A stretch of 55,929 nt of DNA, the filler included, from Sluysia triapertura (Eukaryota), in the NCBI GenBank assembly GCA_046118255.1. It is 3 parts of 3 records of this genome, joined end to end, with 100 filler letters (N's around TTAATTAATTAA, not from the genome) between each part and the next. Parts side by side here need not be neighbours in the genome. Positions count along the whole stretch, not along the records: positions 1 to 14,882 come from JBJNIA010245763.1; 2 more parts are not named here. One strand, 5' to 3'. Made by a program: the position numbers and the translations under genes. This document shows, one piece after another, positions 12,479 to 53,699 of the stretch (positions are counted from its first letter, which is position 1; every line of letters starts with the position of its first letter). The notes beneath the pieces are model-generated. The model did no database searches. It saw nothing but the letters and a program-made list of their open reading frames with translations, and had not been told where the DNA came from.

Positions 12479-13304
12479 ATGGAACTCATCAATTTTGCTG
12501 TTTTAATACTAAGACTTCTTTGGGGCTTATTTATTGTATTTTACATGAATTCATGGATTTGTTTTAGTAAAATTCCTAAATGCGAATGTTTACAACAAAA
12601 TTATGAAAAGTTGTTAACTGTAAATCATAGAATTGATTTACTCATAGTGTGTATGAGTAGCGCTATGATAAAACCCACCGTTACTTGTTTATATGTCGTC
12701 ATGCCTTTGGCTTATAATGACATAATAATCTATAAAAGAGTTTTAACTAAAGATGATTTTGATTATTAGTATGAAGTTAACGACTATGATCATAATTTTT
12801 ATGATTACTATGAAGTTAACCAAAACGATGATTATTTCGACGACGATTATGAAGCTAACGATAAAGAATATGGTGCTATCAATGAAGATCTTCATGATAT
12901 CTTAAAATTTAAAGGAAACGTCAATAAATGTCCAAGAAAATGTATAAATCAATTTAGCAAGTTCGATTCAACCCAGTCTAACATGACTGCCTTTTGCCCA
13001 TTCGGTGCGGACAACAATGGAGTATGTATAAAAAGTGTAATCGACTGCTGCTATGCTCATGCAGTGTATGAATTGAAGGCTATCAAGAGAAATGATTCAA
13101 ATTATAACTATCATTCGTCTAGAATAACAGAACCAGTCAAGAGTTTTAGCTCAACTACGATTTCAACTACCAGCGACTTTATCATGAACAATCAAAAAGT
13201 AAATAATTCTTTTATTTACAGTGATAATATTATAATTTATATTTGTTATTCAGGTAAGGGAACGTGGAATTGCATTAGGAGCACACACAGAAGCCAGTAC
13301 TTAA
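12479..13304 (+). pseudogene. Putative secreted/membrane-anchored Cys-rich protein with D/Y-rich repeats, one in-frame TAG
   Basis: ORFs 12479-12769 and 12983-13198 share one frame broken only by TAG at 12767-12769. Hydrophobic N-terminus, DYYEVN-type repeats and Cys clusters. A plausible 55-nt GT-AG intron (13199-13253) leads to a last exon ending TAA 13302-13304. Confidence 0.5.
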
Positions 13305-13771
13305 ATTTCAAACTTTTAATAAATAAATTTTTGTGTAATTATTCCTTATTTTTAATTAAACAAGAATGTAAAGATTATTTTAGATTTTCAATTTTAAAAA
13401 ATAAACTTTTGATAAAATTTTGTAATTCCTTCGTTAACCTAAGAGCAATTAAACATTTAAACTTAATTTTTTATCAAAAAGAATTAAAACATAATTTGAA
13501 ATTTATTAATTATCAACAACCACAACAATATTAATACCGTATAACGAATAAGAATATCGTACTACGTCATTTTCGGAAGCAGAATATGTTAAGATGAACG
13601 CGCTCAATGAGTTTCATTATTACAAAATATACATTTTATGTTGAGCTTGGAAAAGTCGTTTTTGTCACTCTATCAAACAATTATTTGTACTTTCGATCTG
13701 TTTAATTGGATTATCACAATATCTTTATATGATTTGAAACCAGACGGTGAAAGAATCCATAATCTTCTGTG

Positions 13772-14882
13772 TGTAGTAGATAATTTATGTTGTAGATAAT
13801 TTATGTTAGTAGACTGTAGATTTTATGAATTAATTTAGATAAATTTATGTTAATAGATAATTAGATTATAATTTATGTAAAGTTCAAAAAACAATAAAAT
13901 TAAATTATGATTAGATAAAAATAAAATTTTAAAGTTAGTTTTTATGTTAGTAGATAATAATTTAAAAGTTCATAAATAATTATGTTAATTAGTAAATAAA
14001 TTAGATAAAATTAATTTCAAAAGTATTTAATTAACTATTTAATAATCAATCAAAAAATTTAAATTTATGTGCATTTACACGTCTCCGTTTATAATAATTA
14101 TTTCATTTTATCTTTTATATTGCTAAGAAATTTTACATAAATATCTGATGGTTCTAATTCAAAATACATAATACTTAAAGACAAATTTTAAAAATCTTTT
14201 GAGTCCGGCATAACATAACCTTTGGAATAATAGTATTTGGAATCGAAGGAACCTGGGAACAAATTTTGATTTGGAATCAGTTAAGATAATTGACTAGGCG
14301 AACAGATTGGACCATATTTCTTTGGAGATAATATTCATTTGGAATCACTAATCATTGGAGTCGTTACCAAAAAATTTACTATTGGAGAATTTATATCCAT
14401 ATAATCCACTGAACTGTAAGCTATTTATGTTAGGTTTCATACAGTGATAAACTGTATTAAAATCCACGAAAAATCATAACAAATTTTTTACATACCCAAG
14501 TATTCACCTGGGTCAAAATCATCTTTAAAATTTATTATATTTTTAATTTAGGAGAAATCCTAAAATTATTTAAATTAATTATCATTGTTATTATTGCATC
14601 TATTTATTATTGCACCTATTTTTGTATTTATCCTTCATTGTAATTACAACTAAAATTTTGTTAATAAAGTTTCATAGGATACAGTACGTATCAAATATTT
14701 TGTCTTTTGTTTTTTAATTATTAAGGAGTAGAAGTTAGGTTAAAACTTTAATAGAAAAAGAAGTTAATATTAATTAAGTATAATTAAAGACCCTCCGTTT
14801 TAGACATTAAGGAACGCTTTTCGCAGTTTTTTGACATACCTATAACTAAGTCTTCCGCGAGATATAAAACTTAGATTATAGG
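13772..14882 (+). mobile_element. LTR-like element copy C, truncated by the assembly gap
   Basis: Inverted relative to A, B and D. Starts with TGTAG/TAGATAATTTATG repeats, then CATAAATA (14136-14143), TTGGA repeats, GTAAGCTATTT (14416), hairpins, AATAAA and the conserved 3' block (14790-14862). Confidence 0.7.
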
Positions 14883-14982
14883 NNNNNNNNNNNNNNNNNN
14901 NNNNNNNNNNNNNNNNNNNNNNNNNNTTAATTAATTAANNNNNNNNNNNNNNNNNNNNNNNNNNNNNNNNNNNNNNNNNNNN
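14883..14982. other. Artificial contig linker N44-TTAATTAATTAA-N44
   Basis: Exactly 100 nt, with a six-frame-stop palindrome in the middle; identical to 28988-29087. Confidence 0.95.
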
Positions 14983-14984
14983 AT

Positions 14985-15230
14985 AGTAACGCTTACTTTT
15001 ATGGATTTTGGCGTAATAAACGCATTGTTTTATTTGATACATTGTTAAAAGGATTTAAGATGAATCTTGATGATAATAAAATTGATAAGAATCAAGGCTA
15101 CACAAATGATGAAATAACATCTGTGTTAGGGAATGAATTAGGACATTTAAAAATGAATCATGCATTACAAGTGATTGTTTTCTGTCAAGTCAATTTGTTA
15201 TTTATGTTTTTTACGTTTCATGTGTTTTTA
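14985..15230 (+). pseudogene. ZMPSTE24: Fragment of CAAX prenyl protease 1 (ZMPSTE24/STE24, peptidase M48) with altered zinc motif
   Basis: The frame starting just after the gap reads SNAYFYGFWRNKRIVLFDTLL...QGYTNDEITSVLGNELGHLKMNH..FCQVNLLFMFF. This matches the STE24 signature SNAYFYGF..NKRIVLFDTL / VLGHELGHW, but HELGH is NELGH. Similarity is lost after ~15230 and the 5' part is cut by the contig edge. Confidence 0.8.
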
Positions 15231-17063
15231 GCTCAAATTTTAAAAAATTGTTTACCATATTGTAATAAATTAATATATAGTGTTGAATATTTTTTTGTTC
15301 AGTTTTTATTAATAGTTAATTCGGGCCTTAAGCCCTTTTTGGTAATATTTAAATTTGTTGGTAATTTTAATTTAAAGATTTCGAATTTTCATAAAAGAAA
15401 AAAATATAAAATTTTTAATCATAAGATAAAAAATGAAATATTTCCCACAGCTCTTCATAAACGTTATCAAAATCGTAAATTAAAATATAAATCGTAAACT
15501 TGTATCAAAATAACGAAACCATAAATAGAAAAATACCTATTCTAATTGAATTTTTAATTATATACATATTATACTATGTTTTTAGGTTTCTTTTTTCTGA
15601 AGTCGAGAACATGGTGTAAGTAGCTACCATGGATGCATAATAACAGTCAATATAAAATCGTAGCTCCCTTACATAAAATTTATTTATGATTCCGACATTT
15701 TTATTCTAACATTTCCCTGGATATAAGTGGCTTCATATTTCGCAATATTGCTTCCACTTAAATTCAGTTTTCGCACTTAATTTTTTTAACTTTAGAGAAC
15801 AATCTCTATTGGGTTTTAAAGTAAGTACAGGGAAACAAATGAGTTATTCTCTTTTCTTTATTATTCATTATTTGTGAATAAATATATATTCTTTTTTTGT
15901 TTATAAAGGTTGATTTTATTCTTTTTTGAAAGATTCTCATTGCTAGAACCAAACTTACATTATATCTTCTTTTCGTTGCTTAATACCCAATTAAACTTCC
16001 TTCCTTTTTCTGCTGCGAGAGTTGTAAATTATAAATTACAATGAAGTAAAAATAGTATTTCAAATAAATCTAACATATTTGTTTCATAAAAACAACTTGA
16101 AGTGCCCTAATTTTAAAGGAAACGAAAAAAACTAAAACTGGAATTCATAAAACATAGATTTGAACAGGTTACTATTGTGGATCTAGTTTTATAAATTTTA
16201 AAATTACAATATTTATATTTAATTATTAATGAATTATTACTACATACGTTATTATTAATTTTATCTTTCAATCTATTATAAAAATTTATAAAAAAATTCA
16301 AACAATTATGATTGCAAAATTGGTGCTTAAGGCACTTAACTGATTCATTGTTAAAGAAAATATTTATAATATAATACAACATAGATTATTCAATATCCAC
16401 GAAATCGAAATTTTAATCACTCTTGATACATAGGTGTAATTAACAATATCAAATAAACAACTTTGACATCTTAGACTGGTCGTGGTTCCAAATAGTACAG
16501 GACAATATTTAAGCTTGTTGATACCATTTCTTTATGATTATATATATAATAGCATTCTGACTATCCACATGTAGGTGGTCTATAATTCTACCATTCTCCA
16601 ATACGTATATGTTAATGATGTTTGAACTCATTGCACAAAGAAACATTTCAAAACCATATAGCGAGGTCTATGGAAAATAATGGATAGCAAATATTCAACA
16701 TAATAGGTGTATTGCCTGTAATTCATAAAAATCGAAGAACACACAATCTAAAACTATTAACATAATTCGAATTAACGTTATTAATTTTATAAAATTTAAA
16801 GATAAGCATAATTGTATTACTCAATTTATCAACATATTCTAATTTTAAATTGACATAAAGGTCTTTATAAACCTTAAAGATTGAAACATGTTTAACACCA
16901 GAAACTTTAAAATTTAAATTAAAAACTTTAAGCTTTAAAATAAAGATAAGACTAATAAGTTTTAGAGTTCTCAAAATGGTCAATAAATTTTGAGATGTAA
17001 CATTTTGAATTAAGATTTCAAAATGTAGATTAAATTAAAAATAACATCTTGTGAAAATATAAA

Positions 17064-19169: not shown

Positions 19170-20942
19170 ATGACTTTAATTACCAAACAAGAGCATAAAC
19201 TACAATCTGTAATTAGTCTCGGTGTCGATGACTTTGACGATATCAAATCAGACGCTAAATTAATATCAACATCTACACTAAATGATTATTCTCCCATTTC
19301 TACCATTATAAGATCAATACGTATGGAAGAGTCAGAAGATAAATTTCAACAATTCTATATTAGTAAGCATAGTAATCACATAATTGTTATCATTATTATT
19401 ATTTCTTTTATTCTTTTTATCAATCTCTCTCTGTTTATTTATTTTTTTAATCAAAATTCATTGGTGCTCAAATGCATGGACAGCAAGGTCAACAATTAGA
19501 TTACAATCTTAATGTTCAAACAGGTCAATCTATTGAAACATACGAAAATGAGCAAGTATATCAACAGGAAGAATATTACGACAAAGATATGTCCAGAGAA
19601 GTATTTACCAAGAACACAAACCTCTACATACATTCAAAAGACTGCTTGTCAACCACAAATTCAATCTACTTCATGTTCATCAAGTCTGGAGGAAAATCCA
19701 TGTTCATCTAAAATTCAGTACAATCAAATTTCATCAAAACTGCGAAATAATAAATGTTTATCAAGAGTAAAAAATAATCAAATAACATCAACTAGGTGAG
19801 ACAACACATGTCCAGCAAATATAAAAAATAGTATTTATTTTCCCAAAACCCAATATGTTACATGTTTATCGAAGTTACCAAGTGATCCGTGTTTATCAAA
19901 TATCGATTGTGCCCAAATAACATCAAAGAAAATATGCGATTTTCCAGAAAGCATGAAAATAGGAGTTATTATTTCATCAATTATAACAATAAATTTGAGA
20001 AAAAGTAGTGATGATATAATATCAAGCTGTAATCAAGTGGATTATAATTGCAATGAAGATGATTTTGCCTGCGTTAATTCAGAAAATGATTTTATAGACA
20101 GTGCAAGATCAAGCAATTTAGTTACCCGGATGGCAGCAAATTGCATTGCAGTTGGAAATTGTCAGGAAAATGAAGAAGAATTTATAAACGTTGCAAAATG
20201 CAAAGATGAAAGTGGAAATTGTAAAGGTGAAATAAAAGATGCTTCAAATTGTGTGGGTGAAAAGAAAAAATGCCAAACACTGAAATCAACACATAATAAA
20301 TATAAAGATAAAAAATTATATAATCAATGCGAAAAACCTAAACCAGCTTTTGCAACAAGCACAGCAATTCCTAATAGAAGTAAAAATTCGAAATCAGCTT
20401 GTTTAACAGATGCTTATTTAATATCAACTTTTTATTTGCTATGTCAACCGTGTATTTCTTGTTTTATTAACGGTGAAATTGCAAAAATAACTAAATGGTC
20501 ATGTAGTAACGCAATGAAGAAAATTGATACTATTTCAATACCGAAAAATAAATGCGATACTAAGAAAGAGTTTCAATATACACATTCGTTTAAAATGTAT
20601 TGTAGAAACATTAAAGTATTTTTACTTAATTTGCATTTAGTAATTGATTCTTGTGCTTGTACAAAATATAAAATTGAAAAATGTATTTATTTGATATCAC
20701 GATTTTTAAGATTTTACACTTCGGATGAAGTAGTGGTCAATTTTTTTCTAGATAAACATGAATGTATTGTAGATTTTTCTGAAAATATTTTGTGCAATTG
20801 GAGTTACATTATTGATGATTATTTTTCATTTCAAGTGCCAAAAGAAAATTCTATATTTTTCAATAGTCCATTATTTGACAACGATAAATCCGGTACTATC
20901 TTAACAACAGAAAAATTATTATCATCATCATGTTTCGTATAA
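19170..20942 (+). pseudogene. Large Cys-rich protein of unknown function with 9-aa repeats, interrupted
   Basis: 19512-20942 is one frame except for TGA at 19797-19799. There is 9-aa periodicity (LEENPCSSK/LRNNKCLSR/TQYVTCLSK/LPSDPCLSN). Upstream ORFs 19170-19499 and 19472-19711 look like an earlier exon or frameshifted part. Confidence 0.5.
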
Positions 20943-24072: not shown

Positions 24073-27000
24073 TTATATTAATATAATCTTGCTTAAGTAT
24101 ATTACGATGTTTATGCACTGACAGTATTAATTTAATTTTTATTAATTTACTTTTACTTAATAATTTATTTCCTTTTGCTTCGAATACGTTTTAATCAAAT
24201 ACTTTTATATAACATATCTCTTAAGAATCTTAACATTCATATTAGAGTCACATTATTTTGAAAATACATATTAAAAGAATTTATTATTTTAATTATATGG
24301 CAATTTTATCTATGAAAAACATAATATAAAATTAAATTCAAAAAGTTATTTACCAAAAAAGTATCAGTGAAGTTACAATAAAAGTGATGTTTCCACCATT
24401 AGAATTTTCTTGTATCTAATGGTTTGATTATCTGTTGATTCGAAAACGAAGTAGTACTGATAGTGCTCTACTTTTTGGTTGATTATTAAGTATTATTATT
24501 TATTAGTTACCAATTATTAACGATTTCAATAAGGTTGATTATTTGCTGATCTGAAAACAATAATATAGTAAGGTAATACTTTGAAAGTACCTTAATGAAT
24601 TAAGATTTTCTTTATTTTCAGTTATTTTAAGTGTAGATATTTTGTACTTGCATCTATACCACCAAGAACTATTTCAGAACTAATGTTATTGACAGGATGA
24701 AGTTTCATACTGAAAATTCATACTGAAATGTAAATCTTTTCCAAATAAATTTTAATATTTAACGCAATATTCTTTATCATTTGAAGAATAATGTATTATT
24801 ATTATTATTACCACAATATTTCTAAATTATCTATGGTTTGTAGAATTATCGTGAAAATATCATGTATGTAAATAACAATTATTAAAATTTTAATTGATTA
24901 TAAAGTTGTTTTTTTTCAAAATATATTTTAAAAATATATTAGTTTATTACAAATTAAATTTTAAATTAATAAATAAATTACAAATAAACGTGTTTTCCAA
25001 AATAAAATCCACATAATCGATTTTATTTTGTAACATTCTTTATGTAAATTAAATATTTTTAATTTAATATATTATATTAATATATTATTTATTACTACAG
25101 TATTGTACAGTATTTTTATATTTTTAATTTATTATATTATATTTAAAATTTTCTTTTTGTTGTTTATTTTATTATTTTTATTTGGAGTTACACTCGTCTC
25201 TGTTACAAATGTGCTTTCTAGTCTTTCTAAAACAAAATAAACTATTACTCAACTAAGATTTATTAGAACAAATGATTTAAATATTATTAAAATAATAAAT
25301 ATTACAATAATTTTATACACAGTAAAGTTTATAGAAAATTAATTTAAATCGATAGGTCAATTAATTATTTATAATTTACTCGACTTTAATTGCTCGAATT
25401 GAATATAATTTTAATAAATTATAACAGTTTAATCATTATTATATAATTATAATAGTTTATATATTGTAACCAAATCGTAATCTTCCAAATAAATTAATCT
25501 AATTGTTCACAATTATTGAAATATCTACATATTTATTACTTACTGCTTACTGTTGTTATGATTATGATTATACATATTTATTTTACAGAAAATATTTTAC
25601 ATAAAAATTATACAAATGAGTATAATTACAAATTAATTGAAACTTTTTAAGAAAATAAAAATTAATTCGTGTTCTGCACTTTTTTTATACGAAACGATAT
25701 TAAACTAAAGTCAAACTTTGATTTCATAACTTTAATTTCGATCAAAAATAAACATATATAAGCTATAATTTGTAGTTACCAAACTAAATAATCATATAAT
25801 TATTTACTATTTACACGGAAACATTATTTATGTTTTTAAATTAATGACAATAATTTTATAACACAATTAAATGAATCTGAATCTTAATAAATTCTAAACT
25901 TTATCATAAAGTACATAACAATAAAAAGCATTCTTTTATAACAATTAATTATACACAAAGTATGCAAATGTTACTACCTGAATAACAATAAATTAATAAA
26001 AAAATTAAGCCTCGCCTGATCCTGAATCAGATTACTAAAGAAATATAAGATTCAATCAGTGTTTACAATGATTTCTATATTAAATGATAACAAAATGAGT
26101 TTCTTTACATAGTGTTTAGATAATTTCTAGAAAGTCGACTTAAGTAATATGTGCATGTCAACAACACATGCTTATTTCTTAGAAGTGGTTTTACGCCGAC
26201 CAATTTTAATAATCAATTTTGAAGATTAATTTCCGTCTTACTATTACCCAGAAATTATCCAAAGATAATGAATTTTGTGGCAAACTCTTACCTTTTATGA
26301 ATTACAAAATTAAAATTTAAAATAACAATATTTTTGATACAATAATATATAATATATAAATATAATCAAATATAAAACTTATTTCCAAAAGTAACTTTTG
26401 ATACCATGCACAACACGTTAGCGGAGCATCGAACGTCAATTTCAATAATATATGTATAAAATTATCTCTTATTGAGCATTATTTTGAAGTGTACTTTTAC
26501 TACATACATTCATTATAACAGAAATTTAACTTTATAACGAATAAAATTAATTAAACTTAATTATTTTAATTAATTAATTAAACGTAATATCTATGTCAAC
26601 TCGTTTCGCATTAATAAATTTCATAATTGTGTTTCGTTATATGTGCCGTTTTTTCATACGCAAACATCATACACAAATGATTTTCAAACAATTTTAATTA
26701 AATTAATTAAATGCTGATTCCTTCATTTTACAAATTACGACAACTTTGAATATGCATCATCTTTAACAACCTAACTGTTGCTCTAAAACAGAAAACAATA
26801 AAAGTATAAAAAGAATGCAATTTGTAAATTTATGAAATGAAAATGTATTTTATGATTAATCTGAATTTATATTTATTATATTATTATGTGAAATGAAAAG
26901 TATTTATGTGAATTTATTATAATTATTTATATTTATTAAATTATTTAACGTAAATTTAATCAAAGCGGAAAATTAATCTTAAAGTTAGTTTAAATTTAAT

Positions 27001-28987: not shown

Positions 28988-29087
28988 NNNNNNNNNNNNN
29001 NNNNNNNNNNNNNNNNNNNNNNNNNNNNNNNTTAATTAATTAANNNNNNNNNNNNNNNNNNNNNNNNNNNNNNNNNNNNNNNNNNNN
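28988..29087. other. Artificial contig linker N44-TTAATTAATTAA-N44
   Basis: Same structure as 14883-14982. Confidence 0.95.
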
Positions 29088-29833: not shown

Positions 29834-29943
29834 AGCAATTAAATCAAATTATACTTTTTGTGGCTTATGAATAAAAGAGTAATAGTTAAAAAGATTTTAT
29901 GAACATAGAATTTTTATCAAAGTAGTGGTAAACTTAAAAGATA

Positions 29944-30627
29944 ATGTCAAGACAATCTTGTATACGTAAACATGATGCTTTCAGAGTAATATTACTAAAC
30001 AGCAATGAAATAACGATGAAACAATCTGAGATACGTAAAGATGATCTATTTAGTATAATATTATTAAACAAAAATGAAATAACGATCAGACAATCTGAGA
30101 TACGTAAAGATGATCTATTTAGTATAATATTATCAAACAACTATGAGATAATGAAAAGATAGCTTTGTACACGTAAAGACGATGCTTTTAGTATACTGTT
30201 ATTAGATGTTTCTGAATTAATTGAAAGACAACTTGGTACACGTGAAGATGACGCTTTTAGTATGATTTCATTAGATGTTCATAAAACAATTAAAAGACAA
30301 CTTTGTATATATAAAAATGATACTTTTAGTGTGATGTTATTAGATGTTTCTCAAATAATGAAAGGACGGCTTTGTACATGTAAAGACGATGCTTTTAGTG
30401 TGATGTCATTGGATGTTTATGAAGTGATTAAAAGACAACTATGTATATATAAGAATGATACATTTAGTGTGATGTTATTAGATATTCCTGAAGTGATGAA
30501 AAGACGGCTCCGTACACGTAAACATGATGCATTTAGTATGATATTATTACAAAATTATGAAATATCTACGAGACAACCTGACATACGTAAAGAAGTTAAT
30601 ATGTTATTGATTGGACTTTCTAATTAA
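29944..30627 (+). repeat. Coding tandem repeat, ~9.5 x 69 bp (23 aa: RQLCIRKDDAFS(V/I)MLLD...), with one in-frame TAG
   Basis: Units start near 29950, 30019, 30088, 30157, 30226, 30295, 30364, 30433, 30502 and 30571. ORFs 29944-30162 and 30262-30627 share a frame. TAG 30160-30162 sits where most other units have CAA (Gln). Confidence 0.8.
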
Positions 30628-35399: not shown

Positions 35400-36467
35400 A
35401 AACATTTGTGGTGATCAACTTTCACTTATTAAATTTTATAAAAAATAATCCTTTAACATTTTAATATTCGCATGTTTATCTTCTCTACACTCACTAAAAC
35501 AGTTCATCTGACAAAAGCAAGTCATCCACAATCTCATAACATACAAACCACATTCGAAAGTATTCACTCAACACCTTCGTCGAATCAATTACAACACTTT
35601 AAATTTATCATTTGTTATCATATAATCCCTAATAACACAAAAGACAATACCACTTAAAAATAGCAAGAGAACAAATCACATCAACATTGTACAATCACCT
35701 TTCGAAGATACTAAGAGTTGGACTATCATTATCTTTTTCACATTCACTAAACCACACTCTTTTCAATGTATCTTTAGGTCACAATCTTCCAATATTCAAA
35801 TATTACTTTCAGTCAAAAACATTAATCACTATCTAAAAATTCATTCTAACGTTCTACATTTTACTGCATAGCATAAGAACTGCTATAAGAACGTCAATTA
35901 TATATGTAAAACTCACTTAAACTAACCTTTACTTAAAGATCTTTAGTTTCAAATATATTTAAATGTATTGGAATATGTTTAGAAATCTACGGGATTTAAA
36001 GTAAGATTATGTACGGTTTTTAAAGAATTCAAAAGTTCATGCAGTTTAATAACAATAATAACTATAACATCGTTCCTCTTGTTATTGCTCTTATTGCATT
36101 CAATTCAATCGTTTTTAGTTTTGGATTCAAAATATGTAAGAAATATAAAGAAAAGTAAAGAAAGGTCATGTAATGTTCAGCAAGAATTTATGTATTTTTA
36201 AATATTTTGTACTTAATTGATGTTAATAATTATAACATTATTGCTATTATTATTAATACTAATGCATTAAAATTCATTAATTTATTTAATATCTAAATCA
36301 GTATCTACCACTACCAATATTGACATTGCTGATTATTGTATATAGATTTATGTCAGCACTGATGGTGGCTCATCACTCAGTATTTCAATTTTTAATTTTT
36401 AATATTAGTCGTCCAATCAGTGTAATAATGATTATCAATTTTAGTGCTTTCTGATTGGACGACTAAT
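35400..36467 (+). repeat. Dispersed module X copy 3
   Basis: Homologous to copy 1. TGACA/TGTCA palindrome 36308-36368 and a perfect 17-bp ATTAGTCGTCCAATCAG inverted repeat 36404-36420/36451-36467. Confidence 0.7.
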
Positions 36468-37695: not shown

Positions 37696-40616
37696 TTATT
37701 TCTTTTAATTACCTTGTCTACAACTTAAAGTTTTATTTTATTTTAGACTCTTAAGTGCAAGAAAGGCTTCGTGACATCCGTAGAACAGAAATAACAAAAA
37801 TAAAATTTTTTAATGTAATAATGTATAATAATGTATAATCGTCAATTTGTTTTTAATTGTTGTCCGTAATCTTTTAATAAGAAAACGCAGTAATAAATTA
37901 AAAATTAACATTCCTAAAGAATTTATAAAGGAATTCGTATTTTACAATTTAAATAAATTTTATTTTAATGCTAAATTGCAATTTGAAAAGAATTTACAAC
38001 TAATTTTGCGTATTATAAAGTGAGCTCTCTATGATACTGGACTTACTCACTGAAAAGAGATTAATACAGGAGGTAAATATATGTTATATGTAACTTCTTA
38101 TTTTGGTACAACAATTATTATTATTTTAATAACTAATAACTTTTCAAATACCTTTATTAATCACAAAATAAATATTGTTGGTACACTTAATCAAACGATA
38201 TTAGAAAATTACAAAGTAAATGTTAATAATCAATAGTATAATTAATTTCAATAAAATCAAAAGATATTAAAGGATCTATAATGTAAATGATAATAAATTG
38301 ATAGTATAATTGATTATAGTAAAATGAAATGATATTACAAGAACTTTAACCTAAATGTTGCTTAATAGTACAATTCATTATAAAATCAAACGATATATAA
38401 AAATGTTGAGTTAAAAAAATTATCAGACGAAATAAATTTATATTAATTTTAATTGATTTTTCAAAAAATTCAAAATAATAAGTTCAATTGTTAATTTTAT
38501 AAGTAATAAAATTACAACTTTTATAAGGTGTCAATATTATTAATTTTAATAAATTATTATTTAAAGATTCGTTTTTATAATATTATCAAAAATTCAAAGT
38601 ATTAAATTCAATTATTAATTAAACTTCGTTACATAAAATTACGATTTTTATAATATTTGTTACAGTAAATTTTAAAAATAAATGTATGTGGTATAAAATT
38701 ATTCTAAATTTTAACTTAATTTGAGTGGATATTATGATAATTAAATTTAGTCTTAAGAATGAAAAACTAACGATTATATCTCTTTAACTATAAATCCTTC
38801 CAAAAAATAAAATTTTTCTAGAATTAAAATAATATTAGTCTTCTTTACGGTTAACGTTTCAACTACGGATCCTTCCAAAAATTTCCAAAATTAAAATAAT
38901 ATAAATCTTCTTTTTGTTAAGGTTTCTTTCCAAAAATTACAACAAATTACTTGTTAAAATCATAGAAATTGTTAAAAATTATTAAAAATTATTAAAAATG
39001 TTAATGTGTTATTTACCATATTTTGATTGATCTCAACCAACTTTTATTATGACACACAAGATATATTTAGGTATTATACTTTTACGATTTATTTTTAACA
39101 CTTTAAATAAAATATAATTAATAATAAAATATAACAGTTTAATAATAAAAATATAGTAATTTAATAATAATAGTCAAAATAAAAATTAATGCCACATTAA
39201 ACTAAAATTAAATAATAAATAAATCATTACATAAATTGAAATCATAAAAATATAACAAGGATATGACCAGGAGCGACGCAACAAAATATTAATTATTATT
39301 CACAATTATTTCTTAATAATAATCAAATATAAATTTCCAAAAAAAAACAAAAAACTATTCTAATAAAATTCCCCAAAAATATTATTATTTTTAATTATAA
39401 AATAAATTCAAAAATTGCTTAAATCAAAAATAGCATGGATCTTCTCATTTGCATTGTTAATCGTTGTTGTTACTGTTGTGTTGTTGGTGTGAGGTAAAAT
39501 ATTTTGATATTCCTTTTTCTATTTTCTCATCATCCAACCATTCCCAAAATTTTGATTAAACATTCTCTCACACAAATCACTGAAACATTCTTTGAGAATT
39601 AATCCGACAATAATAACTTTGACAGTTACATGGTACAGACTGTCAAAGTTTATTAGATACTAAACACAAAAAATTGATTTAGGATTATCTATTATTTTCC
39701 TTTACTCTACTCAATCTACTTTTACTTAAATTAATATCATATTAATATAATAATCATTATTATTGTTAACATAAATAAAAAATAATGAATTTAATTTTAG
39801 TTTTCAGAATTTAAATGATTTTCGGTTTTTCACACCAAATTTTCTAATGAGAAATGTTTTAAGCTTCCTATTCTCAAACGAACAATTTTTCAAACATTTC
39901 AAACTCACTTCTGAATTCTCCTCTTTCATAGCACCCATTTCATATTCCATTCATCATATTTGCATTACTCTAAGTACTAAAAATTCAACATTCCATAAAT
40001 AAAAATTAATTAAAATTTGACTTTGCTCAATATTAAGGCTTTCCTTGCATGAACTCGATCAAACCATACCTACATCAAAAGGTCTCTCAAAACAAATACA
40101 TGCACAATTTCAAACTTAACATAGCATTCCGCATTGAAGAGTTATTCACAAAAACGTACTTTTTCTTAATTAAGATAATTTATGATAGATTCATTACGTC
40201 AGTCTTTGAAAGGAAAACAAAAAATGCACTATATTTATTTATTGAATATTGTAAGTAATACATAAAATTGAAATAATTATTTAATGATAACGAAAATGAT
40301 CATCACAGTTAAAATTAATTATTTGATAATAATAAAATCACTTTTATTTCTTACATATTATAATGAGAGTAATCACGAAAAAAATGCTTCAAGATAATCA
40401 GTATTGATAATACTAATAATTAGTAGAAGAAGATAACAACAGTGTATTTCTACTAGTTTTCTAAAAATCAAAGATAAAACAATCGAATAAACATCTAAAT
40501 ACATAGTTAGTTATATTTCTAGCGCATCGTCTCATATCGTATTTGTTATTTTAGTAGTTTACTTTGCATTTTACAAATAATAACATAAGGCATGGTTGTG
40601 GTACTGTGTTTCTAAT

Positions 40617-51350: not shown

Positions 51351-53699
51351 TATTTCGTAATCTTCCAGTTAATTGACATTCTCCAGCATAATTTTGAAAC
51401 ACGAACTGATAAATCTTATGTTGTATAGATTGTTATGTTTTTGTAAATAATAGCATTTCGAGTATCAATTTTCGATTATTTCAATAATTAATTTATAGAT
51501 TAAATTTTGTAAAAAATATTTGTAAATTAAATTTTGTATTATATATATTATTAATATTCGAAAGTACAACATTTAATGTAAATAATATTATTACTAGTTA
51601 GAACTCTTTATGCAAAATTATTTATGTAAATTTATACGTCTATTATTAATAATTCTTAGTAAATTAGTAATACATTCTTAGTATAAAAAGAAAAGGTTAC
51701 ACATAAAAAACACACAATTTAAATTAAAAGTTATTCTTACAAACTATTGCGCTTGTGGAGAACATCTGAAAACATTAAAATAAAATTAACAATTTTTTCA
51801 ATACGTATTTTGGTTCTCAGATCGAGTCAATGCTGTCGTTATTTATCCGAACGGAACACAATTAATTAATTATTTGGAAATTTCTTATGTCTAATAAGTA
51901 AACTTATTTTCTGAATGATCACGCATTAATAAATTTTGCGTCAAACTCATAGGTAAAATCTTATGCACTTTAAAAAATCGCCAGGATCAAAATCTCAGTT
52001 AAAATCCTATTTCATTAATTTTATTCGACAGAATAAAACTTTATTTATAATATTTGTGTATTTAAAATACATATATACATATATTGTTGATACTCTGTTT
52101 CTAAGTTTTATTTGTAAACATTTAATCTTAGTTGTTTTTGATATAGAGATATTTGTAATTTCATTTTTAACGTTTGTTTAATAGAACCTACTATCTTCGA
52201 GTTGTTTTTGTTTATTAGTTAAAAAATAACGGTTGTATAAAGTTAAAAGAATAATTATTTAAAGTAAGCTTATAGTAATAACTTCCGTCCCACATCAGCA
52301 TACAGAACAACTCTTGTAGTAACATAAATAAAACAAATTAATCAATAAAGCATTAGGTAAAACTGACCCTCGTTCATAACGCTTTAGAAGCTAGGTTATT
52401 CTTTAACTTGTGGATACGTCTTTCTCGTAATATAAATCGTATTGCACAGGCGGACCCATGTCATATTAATATTATAATTGTTTCAAGCGCAGTAAAATTT
52501 GAACCTTTTAAAGAAATTAGTTTTGATTTATACATTTTTTATATTTTGAATTTTATTTCTCATTTTATTGACTTTCTTACTTGGAAAGGTAATTAATAGC
52601 AATTATCTTACTTTGGTTATCAATGAATGAACAATTTCGGACTTTTAATTTCGCGCCCATCTAACATATCCTACAATTAACTTTGCTTCATTTAGTTTAG
52701 ATATTGCGCTGTTTTTTTTACTAACGAGCCCTGCGCAAGATATTAAATTCGGAACCACTTACAACACCAAAAACCATTATATATATATATATATATAAAC
52801 ACAACAATTGTATCTGTAATCAACAGTATGCATGTTCAAAAAGTATATATGAAATAAAACAAAACAGCAAATTCATGGATTAGAAAACGATTATAAGATT
52901 ATACATAAATTTGCGTCGACAGCACATGTATTCATTTGTCCGCCCTCTAAGGCCCCTTTGGCCCTGTGTTGCGGTTCTATATATATATAATTCTGTTCTT
53001 TATTGATTATCTAACGAGATAATTAAAGAAACCATTGAAAAGTAATAAAAATAAATTTATTGATAATAATAATAATAATAGTTAAATCTTATACTAATTC
53101 ATAGATATCATTTATTCAACCATTTCAGTGTAATAATCCATTTAAATTAGATTTTCTTAAAATTACTGACCCAATTCATAATCAAGCAACCGTACCCTAC
53201 ACGCATCACATTGAGTTCAGTCTTCCATTTCCCCCTATAAAAATATCGATTTTTATAAAACATGATTGACAATTTGATGGCACAATCGATTTGTCGTATT
53301 TACAATACATACATTCCTATCTTCTGTTTCTATCACTTATTTCTTCTTCTACAGACATTATTTATGCATCAATTGATATACCAAAATGGGATTCCCTATT
53401 TGGATGACCTATTTGATATCATAGATTATGCACTTGAATTGTAGCGATTTTTTATTAAATCACTTGGATTTAAACAAAAACAATAGCCTTTCGCAATATA
53501 AAGAGTGATTGAAAAGTAACTCCCTATTTTAAAATACCTACAATTTAATTTAAATGTTTATCAACTTTTATATACATCTTACTTAATATATGCCAATTTA
53601 ATCTATACTCTCGTTTTCTTTCTAGATCTGTTTTGTGAATTTGTTTTAATTAATTTGTTTGAAATTTCAAAACCCTACAAAAATGGTTGTACGTTATGA

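Follow-up and report, generated by a model that had tools for sequence, protein, structure and literature searches.

The hairpins of a dispersed repeat in the Sluysia triapertura genome covary beyond chance and are a real feature, and hairpins 1 to 3 lie within a complete predicted intron for which the GTAAGC motif would serve as the donor, a point absent from an earlier note on this DNA. The covarying intron structure is one without an Rfam model. With a probability of about one half, we read the five copies of the repeat found in the window (the whole stretch of DNA analysed, 55,929 nucleotides with filler included, G+C ~24%) as solo LTRs of an unknown retrotransposon, whose R region would hold the whole intron together with an export or packaging signal for unspliced RNA. 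It is likewise an even call that the repeat works like an LTR leader, and it was assigned to no LTR family because target-site duplications were not found.

Self-comparison and profile search identified four copies of the repeat within the first 15 kb, copy C on the plus strand and copies B, A and D on the minus strand. The unit is ~1.1 to 1.25 kb long, and its parts run in the order of an AT-rich head, a TATA box, an AUG-poor exon 1, a GT...AG intron with hairpins 2, 1 and 3, hairpin 4, a conserved block, a hexamer, a CA, and a U-rich tail with terminal AACA. Copy A (1270 to 2474, minus strand, ~1205 bp) has its predicted intron at 1544 to 1803 and ends in TGAACA. Copy B (8360 to 9476, minus strand) has its predicted intron at 8562 to 8820 and is missing the 3' tail, where another repeat adjoins, while copy C is cut short, past the hexamer, by the N gap that starts at 14883. 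Copy D (5495 to 6741, minus strand, ~1247 bp) is decayed and terminates in TGAACA; it reads AT at the donor (position 6146) and has lost hairpins 3 and 4, hairpin 1 being the only one kept in full. Copy E (51419 to 52505, plus strand, ~1087 bp) carries its own TATA (51682), donor, acceptor (intron 51898 to 52184), block (52365 to 52424) and tail, which ends in TGAACC. Copies A, B and C are 63% to 71% alike among themselves, in comparison to 46% to 53% for D and E against the others. The copies would be what is left, as solo elements, of two or more old subfamilies, with A/B/C in one and D/E in another. A sixth copy near 37900 to 38950 was considered and rejected, the region being TTGGA-rich and ATG-poor yet matched by no part profile; ATG-free runs at 38630 to 38960 and 37910 to 38375 (minus strand), a TTGGA cluster and a short internal duplication were observed there.

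The earlier note had described three hairpins kept by compensatory changes, and its coordinates and arm sequences for hairpin 1 in four copies match the window exactly. Hairpin 1 (14494 to 14513 in copy C, plus strand) has 8 bp and is followed by YAAAATC, with three covarying positions in A to D. At its position 6 there is a pair, A·C on the sense strand and G·U on the antisense strand, that is unchanged in A, B, C and D, so that the A·C mismatch which had been called invariant is so in these four copies, but not in E, where hairpin 1 is shortened to 3 bp and the pair is gone. Hairpin 2, present as described in C (14439 to 14457, plus strand), B (8779 to 8796) and A (1762 to 1780), has 6 bp followed by YAAAAT, with two covarying positions among these copies and two new pair types in E; YAAAAT trails both hairpins 2 and 1 in A to D, and on the sense strand the decayed hairpin 2 of copy D still has two G·U pairs. 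Hairpin 3 (14547 to 14564, plus strand, 7 bp) was also confirmed with its GAAA loop in C (14548 to 14563), B (8677 to 8692) and A (1661 to 1676), with two covarying positions among the three and three new pair types in E. Its GNRA loop holds for A, B and C, but the loop of E is GACA, which is not strictly GNRA, and D has no hairpin 3; the first G and last A of the loop are kept on the sense strand. A fourth hairpin was newly found at 14678 to 14692 (plus strand, 5 bp), starting at the predicted first base of exon 2 directly after a conserved TTYRTAG, with two covarying positions in A, B and C, and is missing from D and E.

Over the four hand-anchored stems, 9 of 26 paired positions vary, and all nine covary and remain Watson-Crick with no breaks, in agreement with the compensatory changes claimed earlier. 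Because the hand-anchored stems were picked post hoc, from five sequences in all, an unanchored scan of the pairwise alignments was also performed. The results showed four covarying stems for C/B and three for C/A, in comparison to null means of 0.15 and 0.19, and none of 300 simulations was as high; the remaining four copy pairs were weaker, with one stem each (P 0.02 to 0.17). No covarying stem was found in any of the four control alignments, two of other repeats in the window and two of other parts of the family. The dispersed repeat pairs 2575 to 2870 / 39510 to 39825 and 11548 to 11825 / 35546 to 35823, which served as negative controls for covariation, are 72% to 74% identical. A covariance model, trained only on A, B and C, picked up copy D (52 bits) and also the unseen copy E (51898 to 52058; 35.9 bits, E-value ~1e-3), the next match being at 20 bits. 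Among the 16 pairs examined in copy E, 15 are Watson-Crick and one, in hairpin 2, is U·U, and six pair types are new in comparison to A to C. As the model itself rewards pairing, this result is tilted in favour of the structure, but a separate mark of copy E is its ATG-free run, the fourth longest in the window.

The predicted GT-AG intron of copy C occupies 14416 to 14677 (plus strand, 262 nt), with the donor GTAAGCT and the acceptor TTTCATAG, and the homologous predicted introns measure 259 nt in B, 260 nt in A, 269 nt in D and 287 nt in E, all with GT...AG boundaries except D, where the donor reads AT. Hairpins 2, 1 and 3 fall within its 5' half. A GT donor and a YAG acceptor with an AG-free zone, as in U2-type introns, were found in A, B, C and E. 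In A, B and C, the 126 to 231 nt leading up to the acceptor hold no YAG, E being less clean, and no U12 donor was found in the introns of A to D. The AATAAA that had been noted after the hairpins is indeed present (14663 to 14668 in copy C, plus strand), but it lies in the intron interior, ~10 to 15 nt upstream of the conserved acceptor AG, where it may act at the branch point, and it is missing in E, which retains GTAAT. Because of this branch-point position and the loss in E, it is unlikely to be a poly(A) signal. As contigs of run X1 read through introns of the neighbouring NUBPL gene (a 2886-nt contig crosses them), the run was taken to behave as DNA, and none of the predicted introns matched among the 15 joints listed, of 182, in this DNA-like run.

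Upstream of the predicted transcript, copy C has a U3-like AT-rich region at 13768 to 14134 (plus strand, 5' end approximate) with AATTTATGT / TGTAGATA repeats, which is 72% to 86% similar to positions 9325 to 9466 of copy B and holds 9 ATG in comparison to 6.8 expected, i.e., the chance level. It is followed by a putative TATA-like box at 14136 to 14143 (plus strand), which reads CATAAATA in C, TATAAATA in A and B, and TATAAAAA in D and E. Exon 1, predicted at 14170 to 14415 (plus strand) from a putative start site, contains no ATG where ~5 are expected, and TTGGA eight times where 1.0 is expected, with TCCAA absent; copy B likewise has eight TTGGA and no TCCAA in this exon. Its predicted length is 186 to 304 nt among the copies, and between B and C it is 49% identical and hardly alignable, with the TTGGA motifs and the absence of ATG nonetheless kept.

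The loss of ATG begins just 3' of the TATA box. Summed over the five copies, the observed and expected numbers of ATG are 25 and 23.5 upstream of TATA, which is the chance level, in comparison to 11 and 68 downstream of it, with 3 versus 24.5 in exon 1, 4 versus 20.6 in the intron and 4 versus 23.3 in exon 2, while CAT on the same strand is near expectation. In A to C, ATG is the most depleted of the 64 triplets (1 versus 28.5), and the longest ATG-free runs on both strands of the 56 kb are those of A (928 nt), B (869 nt) and C (574 nt), all on the GTAAGC strand. We therefore judged the strand of GTAAGC and TATA to be the transcribed one, since the ATG boundary at TATA outweighs the folding and Sm-like evidence for the other strand, and the earlier view that the TATA strand is the driven one gains from the same boundary. 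The folding evidence consists of z scores slightly better on the opposite strand for C, A and D, and a consensus folding energy of -18.9 kcal/mol there in comparison to -13.8 kcal/mol on the GTAAGC strand. Coding in exon 1 or in the spliced form was rejected, the stop-free stretches of 36 to 105 aa being copy-specific and without a start. In copy D a perfect 15-bp inverted repeat (6132 to 6146 / 6365 to 6379) links the region around the donor to that next to TATA; such pairing between the two regions is significant in D only (P ~0.02), in comparison to P of 0.15 to 0.51 in A, B and C. In A and B, GTAAG occurs at TATA on the opposite strand.

Exon 2 contains a GC-richer block at 14788 to 14862 (plus strand), 93% identical between B and C and unstructured. 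Its folding z scores of -0.7 to +1.1 on either strand are not better than those of shuffles, and the block is therefore taken to be conserved as sequence. Within it, no stretch that is invariant in A to D is longer than GTCTTCC (14850 to 14856, plus strand), a match to the miR-7 seed that is kept in four of the five copies and reads GTCTTTC in E; the GY box of this sequence is named as a miR-7 target in a passage of PMC2760746. The block is followed by the hexamer WATAAA (14863 to 14868 in copy C, plus strand), probably a poly(A) signal. In A, D and E the motif GRACYCA comes next and ends 22 nt past the hexamer, an arrangement that occurs at these three sites and nowhere else in the window; then come ATAATTGT and a tail ending in TGAAC(A/C) ~50 nt past the CA. 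WATAAA-N15-GRACYCA is thus the likely poly(A) signal, ~200 nt after the intronic AATAAA, and a role of the hairpins or of the first AATAAA in poly(A) control, which the earlier note had proposed, is not borne out. The 3' order fits a poly(A) signal, a cleavage site, a downstream element and a short U5, although the second hexamer could alternatively be a second TATA plus initiator. An IRES-like role, also proposed, is unsupported; no ORF follows the unit in any copy.

The description of the repeat as a diverged LTR-like family stands in part. The TATA box, the poly(A) hexamer and a GT-rich stretch occur in U3-R-U5 order, as judged by sequence, with the tail seen in A, D and E. The 3' terminus is CTGAACA in A and D, which agrees with YNYAACA at six of seven positions, and TTGAACC in E, the ends of B and C not being visible. 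For the 5' terminus (TGTTRNR or TG...), there are sites ~260 to 370 bp upstream of TATA in all five copies, which are taken as candidates since TGTT is common at 24% G+C. A target-site duplication of 4 to 6 bp was not found: A has none, D has a lone 4-mer 1.8 kb off, and the candidates of B and E are AT-only or have one mismatch; old copies may have lost the duplication. Neither a PBS nor a PPT was found in the window at copies A to D, and a Pfam search of 63 of the 64 window ORFs of at least 70 aa, the one left out spanning an N gap, gave no RT, integrase, gag or GIY-YIG domain. Because target-site duplication, PBS, PPT and internal gag-pol were all unfound, the LTR identity is not established.

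The family also has no counterpart in Rfam, a match to which the earlier note had named as counting against it: Rfam 15 gave no window matches at the gathering threshold, and E-value scans of copies A, B, C and D returned nothing under E 0.26. C/D and H/ACA snoRNAs were rejected, since the C box is absent from the introns of A to D, the hairpins of at most 21 nt are far too short and no Rfam snoRNA score came anywhere near the threshold (E at best 0.26), and pre-miRNAs were likewise rejected by hairpin length. RNase P/MRP and twister, considered on the basis of motifs, were dropped without Rfam support and with the GC-richer block unfolded. The short SL exon of a spliced-leader gene does not match exon 1, predicted at the length given above.

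Retroviral packaging signals lie downstream of the major donor, and the repeat resembles a retroviral 5' leader in having a structured module just 3' of a strong donor, present in unspliced RNA only, and a tetraloop hairpin; the viral acceptor, by contrast, is far downstream, whereas the predicted acceptor here lies ~260 nt from the donor, still within the repeat, and no viral genes are seen. A foamy virus splice donor inside R (PMC3185757) and the export of unspliced MLV RNA (PMC4015919) are precedents in the passages of those sources. The solo LTRs of animal Metaviridae (Ty3/gypsy) and other elements, as outlined in passages of PMC3601003, share with the repeat an AT-rich region, a TATA box, a 3'-end hexamer and a GT/T-rich stretch, 3' ends to which those of A and D are close (YNYAACA), and a long R with stem-loops. 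They differ in that R here would be ~800 nt long with a complete donor-to-acceptor intron, and in that target-site duplication, PBS, PPT and internal domain are unfound and the 5' end is approximate. The ta-TRIM solo LTRs of taeniid tapeworms give rise to short internal transcripts or spliced lncRNAs, like the candidate here, but they have 4 to 5 bp target-site duplications, and a conserved structured LTR intron is not described in the passages of PMC4558846. BARE keeps separate RNA pools for translation and packaging, although its intron is in the coding region (PMC3735527, in part). In the part of PMC4402516 concerned, the splice donors lie near gag, outside the LTR, and do not match. Titles, abstract openings and term counts of open-access papers gave no description of a whole structured intron inside an LTR R region.

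In the mechanism that we propose, Pol II would make a capped ~800-nt RNA from the unit, and both the spliced and the unspliced RNA would reach ribosomes and be scanned by them, which would be the reason for AUG avoidance in the intron as well as in the exons. In a full element, the AUG-free leader would feed a downstream start codon. A protein may bind the repeated module of hairpin plus YAAAAU, and the intronic hairpins would then mark unspliced RNA for export or packaging. Since splicing removes the hairpin module, only intron-containing RNA would be exported or packaged and copied, and the intron would for this reason persist in each new repeat. The order of the parts matches the LTR features in passages of PMC3601003, and the logic matches the retroviral and BARE precedents. 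If the copies are LTRs, their R region contains a whole spliceosomal intron together with an RNA signal backed by covariation, the survival of an intron through repeated reverse transcription would be explained, and the family would offer a small self-contained test case for the sorting of spliced versus unspliced RNA by an invertebrate retroelement.

The main alternative to LTRs, possible but doubtful, is a multicopy family of host lncRNA genes that are transcribed by Pol II and were spread through DNA duplication. In this reading a ~450 to 530-nt spliced RNA would act in the cytoplasm through TTGGA protein-binding motifs and the miR-7 site, and the hairpins would either form a small RNA carried by the intron or act as a switch for its retention. 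The retention of promoter, intron and tail is what is expected of DNA duplication, both the target-site duplication and a coding partner are unfound, and local duplication would also account for four copies lying within 15 kb next to a host gene. The hardly alignable exon 1 with its kept TTGGA and missing ATG would suit such a family as well, motif-level conservation being described for lncRNAs such as Cyrano (PMC7798263, in part), and so would GTCTTCC as the longest invariant run of the block: Cyrano and the GY-box 3' UTRs of E(spl) have this miR-7 seed match in their most conserved noncoding block (passages of PMC7798263 and PMC2760746), but here the repeat is multicopy and the predicted site is broken in one of five copies, namely E. 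An excised nuclear intron, moreover, has no reason to avoid AUG, the hairpins suit neither snoRNAs nor pre-miRNAs for the reasons given, the pile-up of related contigs suggests a family on the scale of transposons, and an integrase-type AACA closes the tail in A and D. If the copies are lncRNA genes, they represent a family of structured ncRNAs that has not been described before and that covaries naturally over many copies. It is unlikely, though worth stating as the boldest reading, that the repeat is no LTR but a previously unseen class of ncRNA genes that stand alone, are transcribed by Pol II and have been amplified in a little-studied animal lineage. Each would make an AUG-free RNA with a variable TTGGA-rich exon, a miR-7 site and a structured intron, and this intron would choose between splicing of the RNA and its export and copying in full, and in this way preserve itself. 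There is a small chance that the unit belongs to a Penelope-like or some other retroelement that retains introns, as its pseudo-LTR or 5' leader, or that it is a non-autonomous element which was copied in full. Penelope-like elements carry a hammerhead in the pseudo-LTR, and no hammerhead core (CTGANGA..GAAA) was found on either strand in A to D, nor an RT or GIY-YIG domain in the ORFs searched. In its favour, the TG...CA ends here come without a target-site duplication, and a 5'-leader spliceosomal intron with conserved splice sites survives transposition in genomic copies of Penelope; the same source, however, as far as its passages go, gives the Penelope intron as 75 bp and the promoter as TATA-less and internal (PMC2377424), whereas here a TATA box and ~260 to 370 bp upstream of it are kept.

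Two further explanations concern the hairpins. DNA template switching in short inverted repeats, which can create and repair stems (PMC8794818, in part), would have made the paired changes without RNA selection, and the small set of five sequences and the post hoc choice of stems leave some room for it. It would erase the A·C mismatch, however, which is kept in all four full hairpins with covarying neighbours, the two other repeats and two other family parts had no covarying stems, and the loss of ATG and the splice signals would be left unexplained, so that we consider it very improbable. Hardly any weight, finally, is given to an Sm-bound snRNA-like molecule read from the opposite strand as hairpin, Sm-like site and hairpin with G·U. 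Hairpin 1 does have G·U in place of A·C on that strand, folding z is slightly better there in three of four copies, and the Sm site RAT4-6GR, absent from the sense introns, occurs in antisense in three of four, as the Sm-like GATTTTGA at the foot of hairpin 1. The site is missing in B, though, Rfam gave no snRNA match, and the expression signals all favour the other direction, as do the first G and last A kept in the loop of hairpin 3 and the two sense-strand G·U pairs in the decayed hairpin 2 of D.

In run X1, which may be the source of the assembly, the summed depth of contigs at least 80% alike is 6515 and 8443 at the hairpin bins of copies A and B and 778 at D, in comparison to 26 to 269 for the NUBPL gene; these depths are no copy number. 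This pile-up over the hairpin bins relative to NUBPL suggests that many related sequences exist. Pattern scans had no matches in metagenome contigs and no phage match; a lone pattern match in a viral contig was rejected as a chance match in coding DNA, and the other viral scan had none. No tRNA was found in the window.

Several other features of the window were observed. A second repeat at 8081 to 8390 adjoins the 3' end of copy B and is 70% like 26520 to 26710; it has the highest contig pile-up of the stretch, and a clean terminal inverted repeat was not found. An ORF relic downstream of B (7098 to 7615, minus strand), frameshifted into pieces of 95 and 87 aa and with raised contig depth, was rejected as the gene of the element, homologs not being found. 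Long cysteine-rich open frames at 19800 to 20942 and 12401 to 13534 (both plus strand), and tandem 69-nt (23-codon) units with the frame mostly open at 29940 to 30590 (plus strand), have no convincing Pfam family. The gaps at 14883 to 14982 and 28988 to 29087 are identical, each of 100 nt (44 N, a 12-nt stop-codon linker and 44 N), and a fragment of Peptidase M48 (Ste24-like) lies directly after the first at 14985 to 15240 (plus strand). The NUBPL/Ind1 gene lies between copies A and D at 3450 to 5206 (plus strand), with predicted GT-AG introns of ~50 nt and ~830 nt. Its protein is 54% to 60% identical to the best relatives, which are many animals and one choanoflagellate with no close relative among them; a second protein search gave no matches. 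Because of this low identity the host lineage would appear to be a long-branch one, probably an animal.
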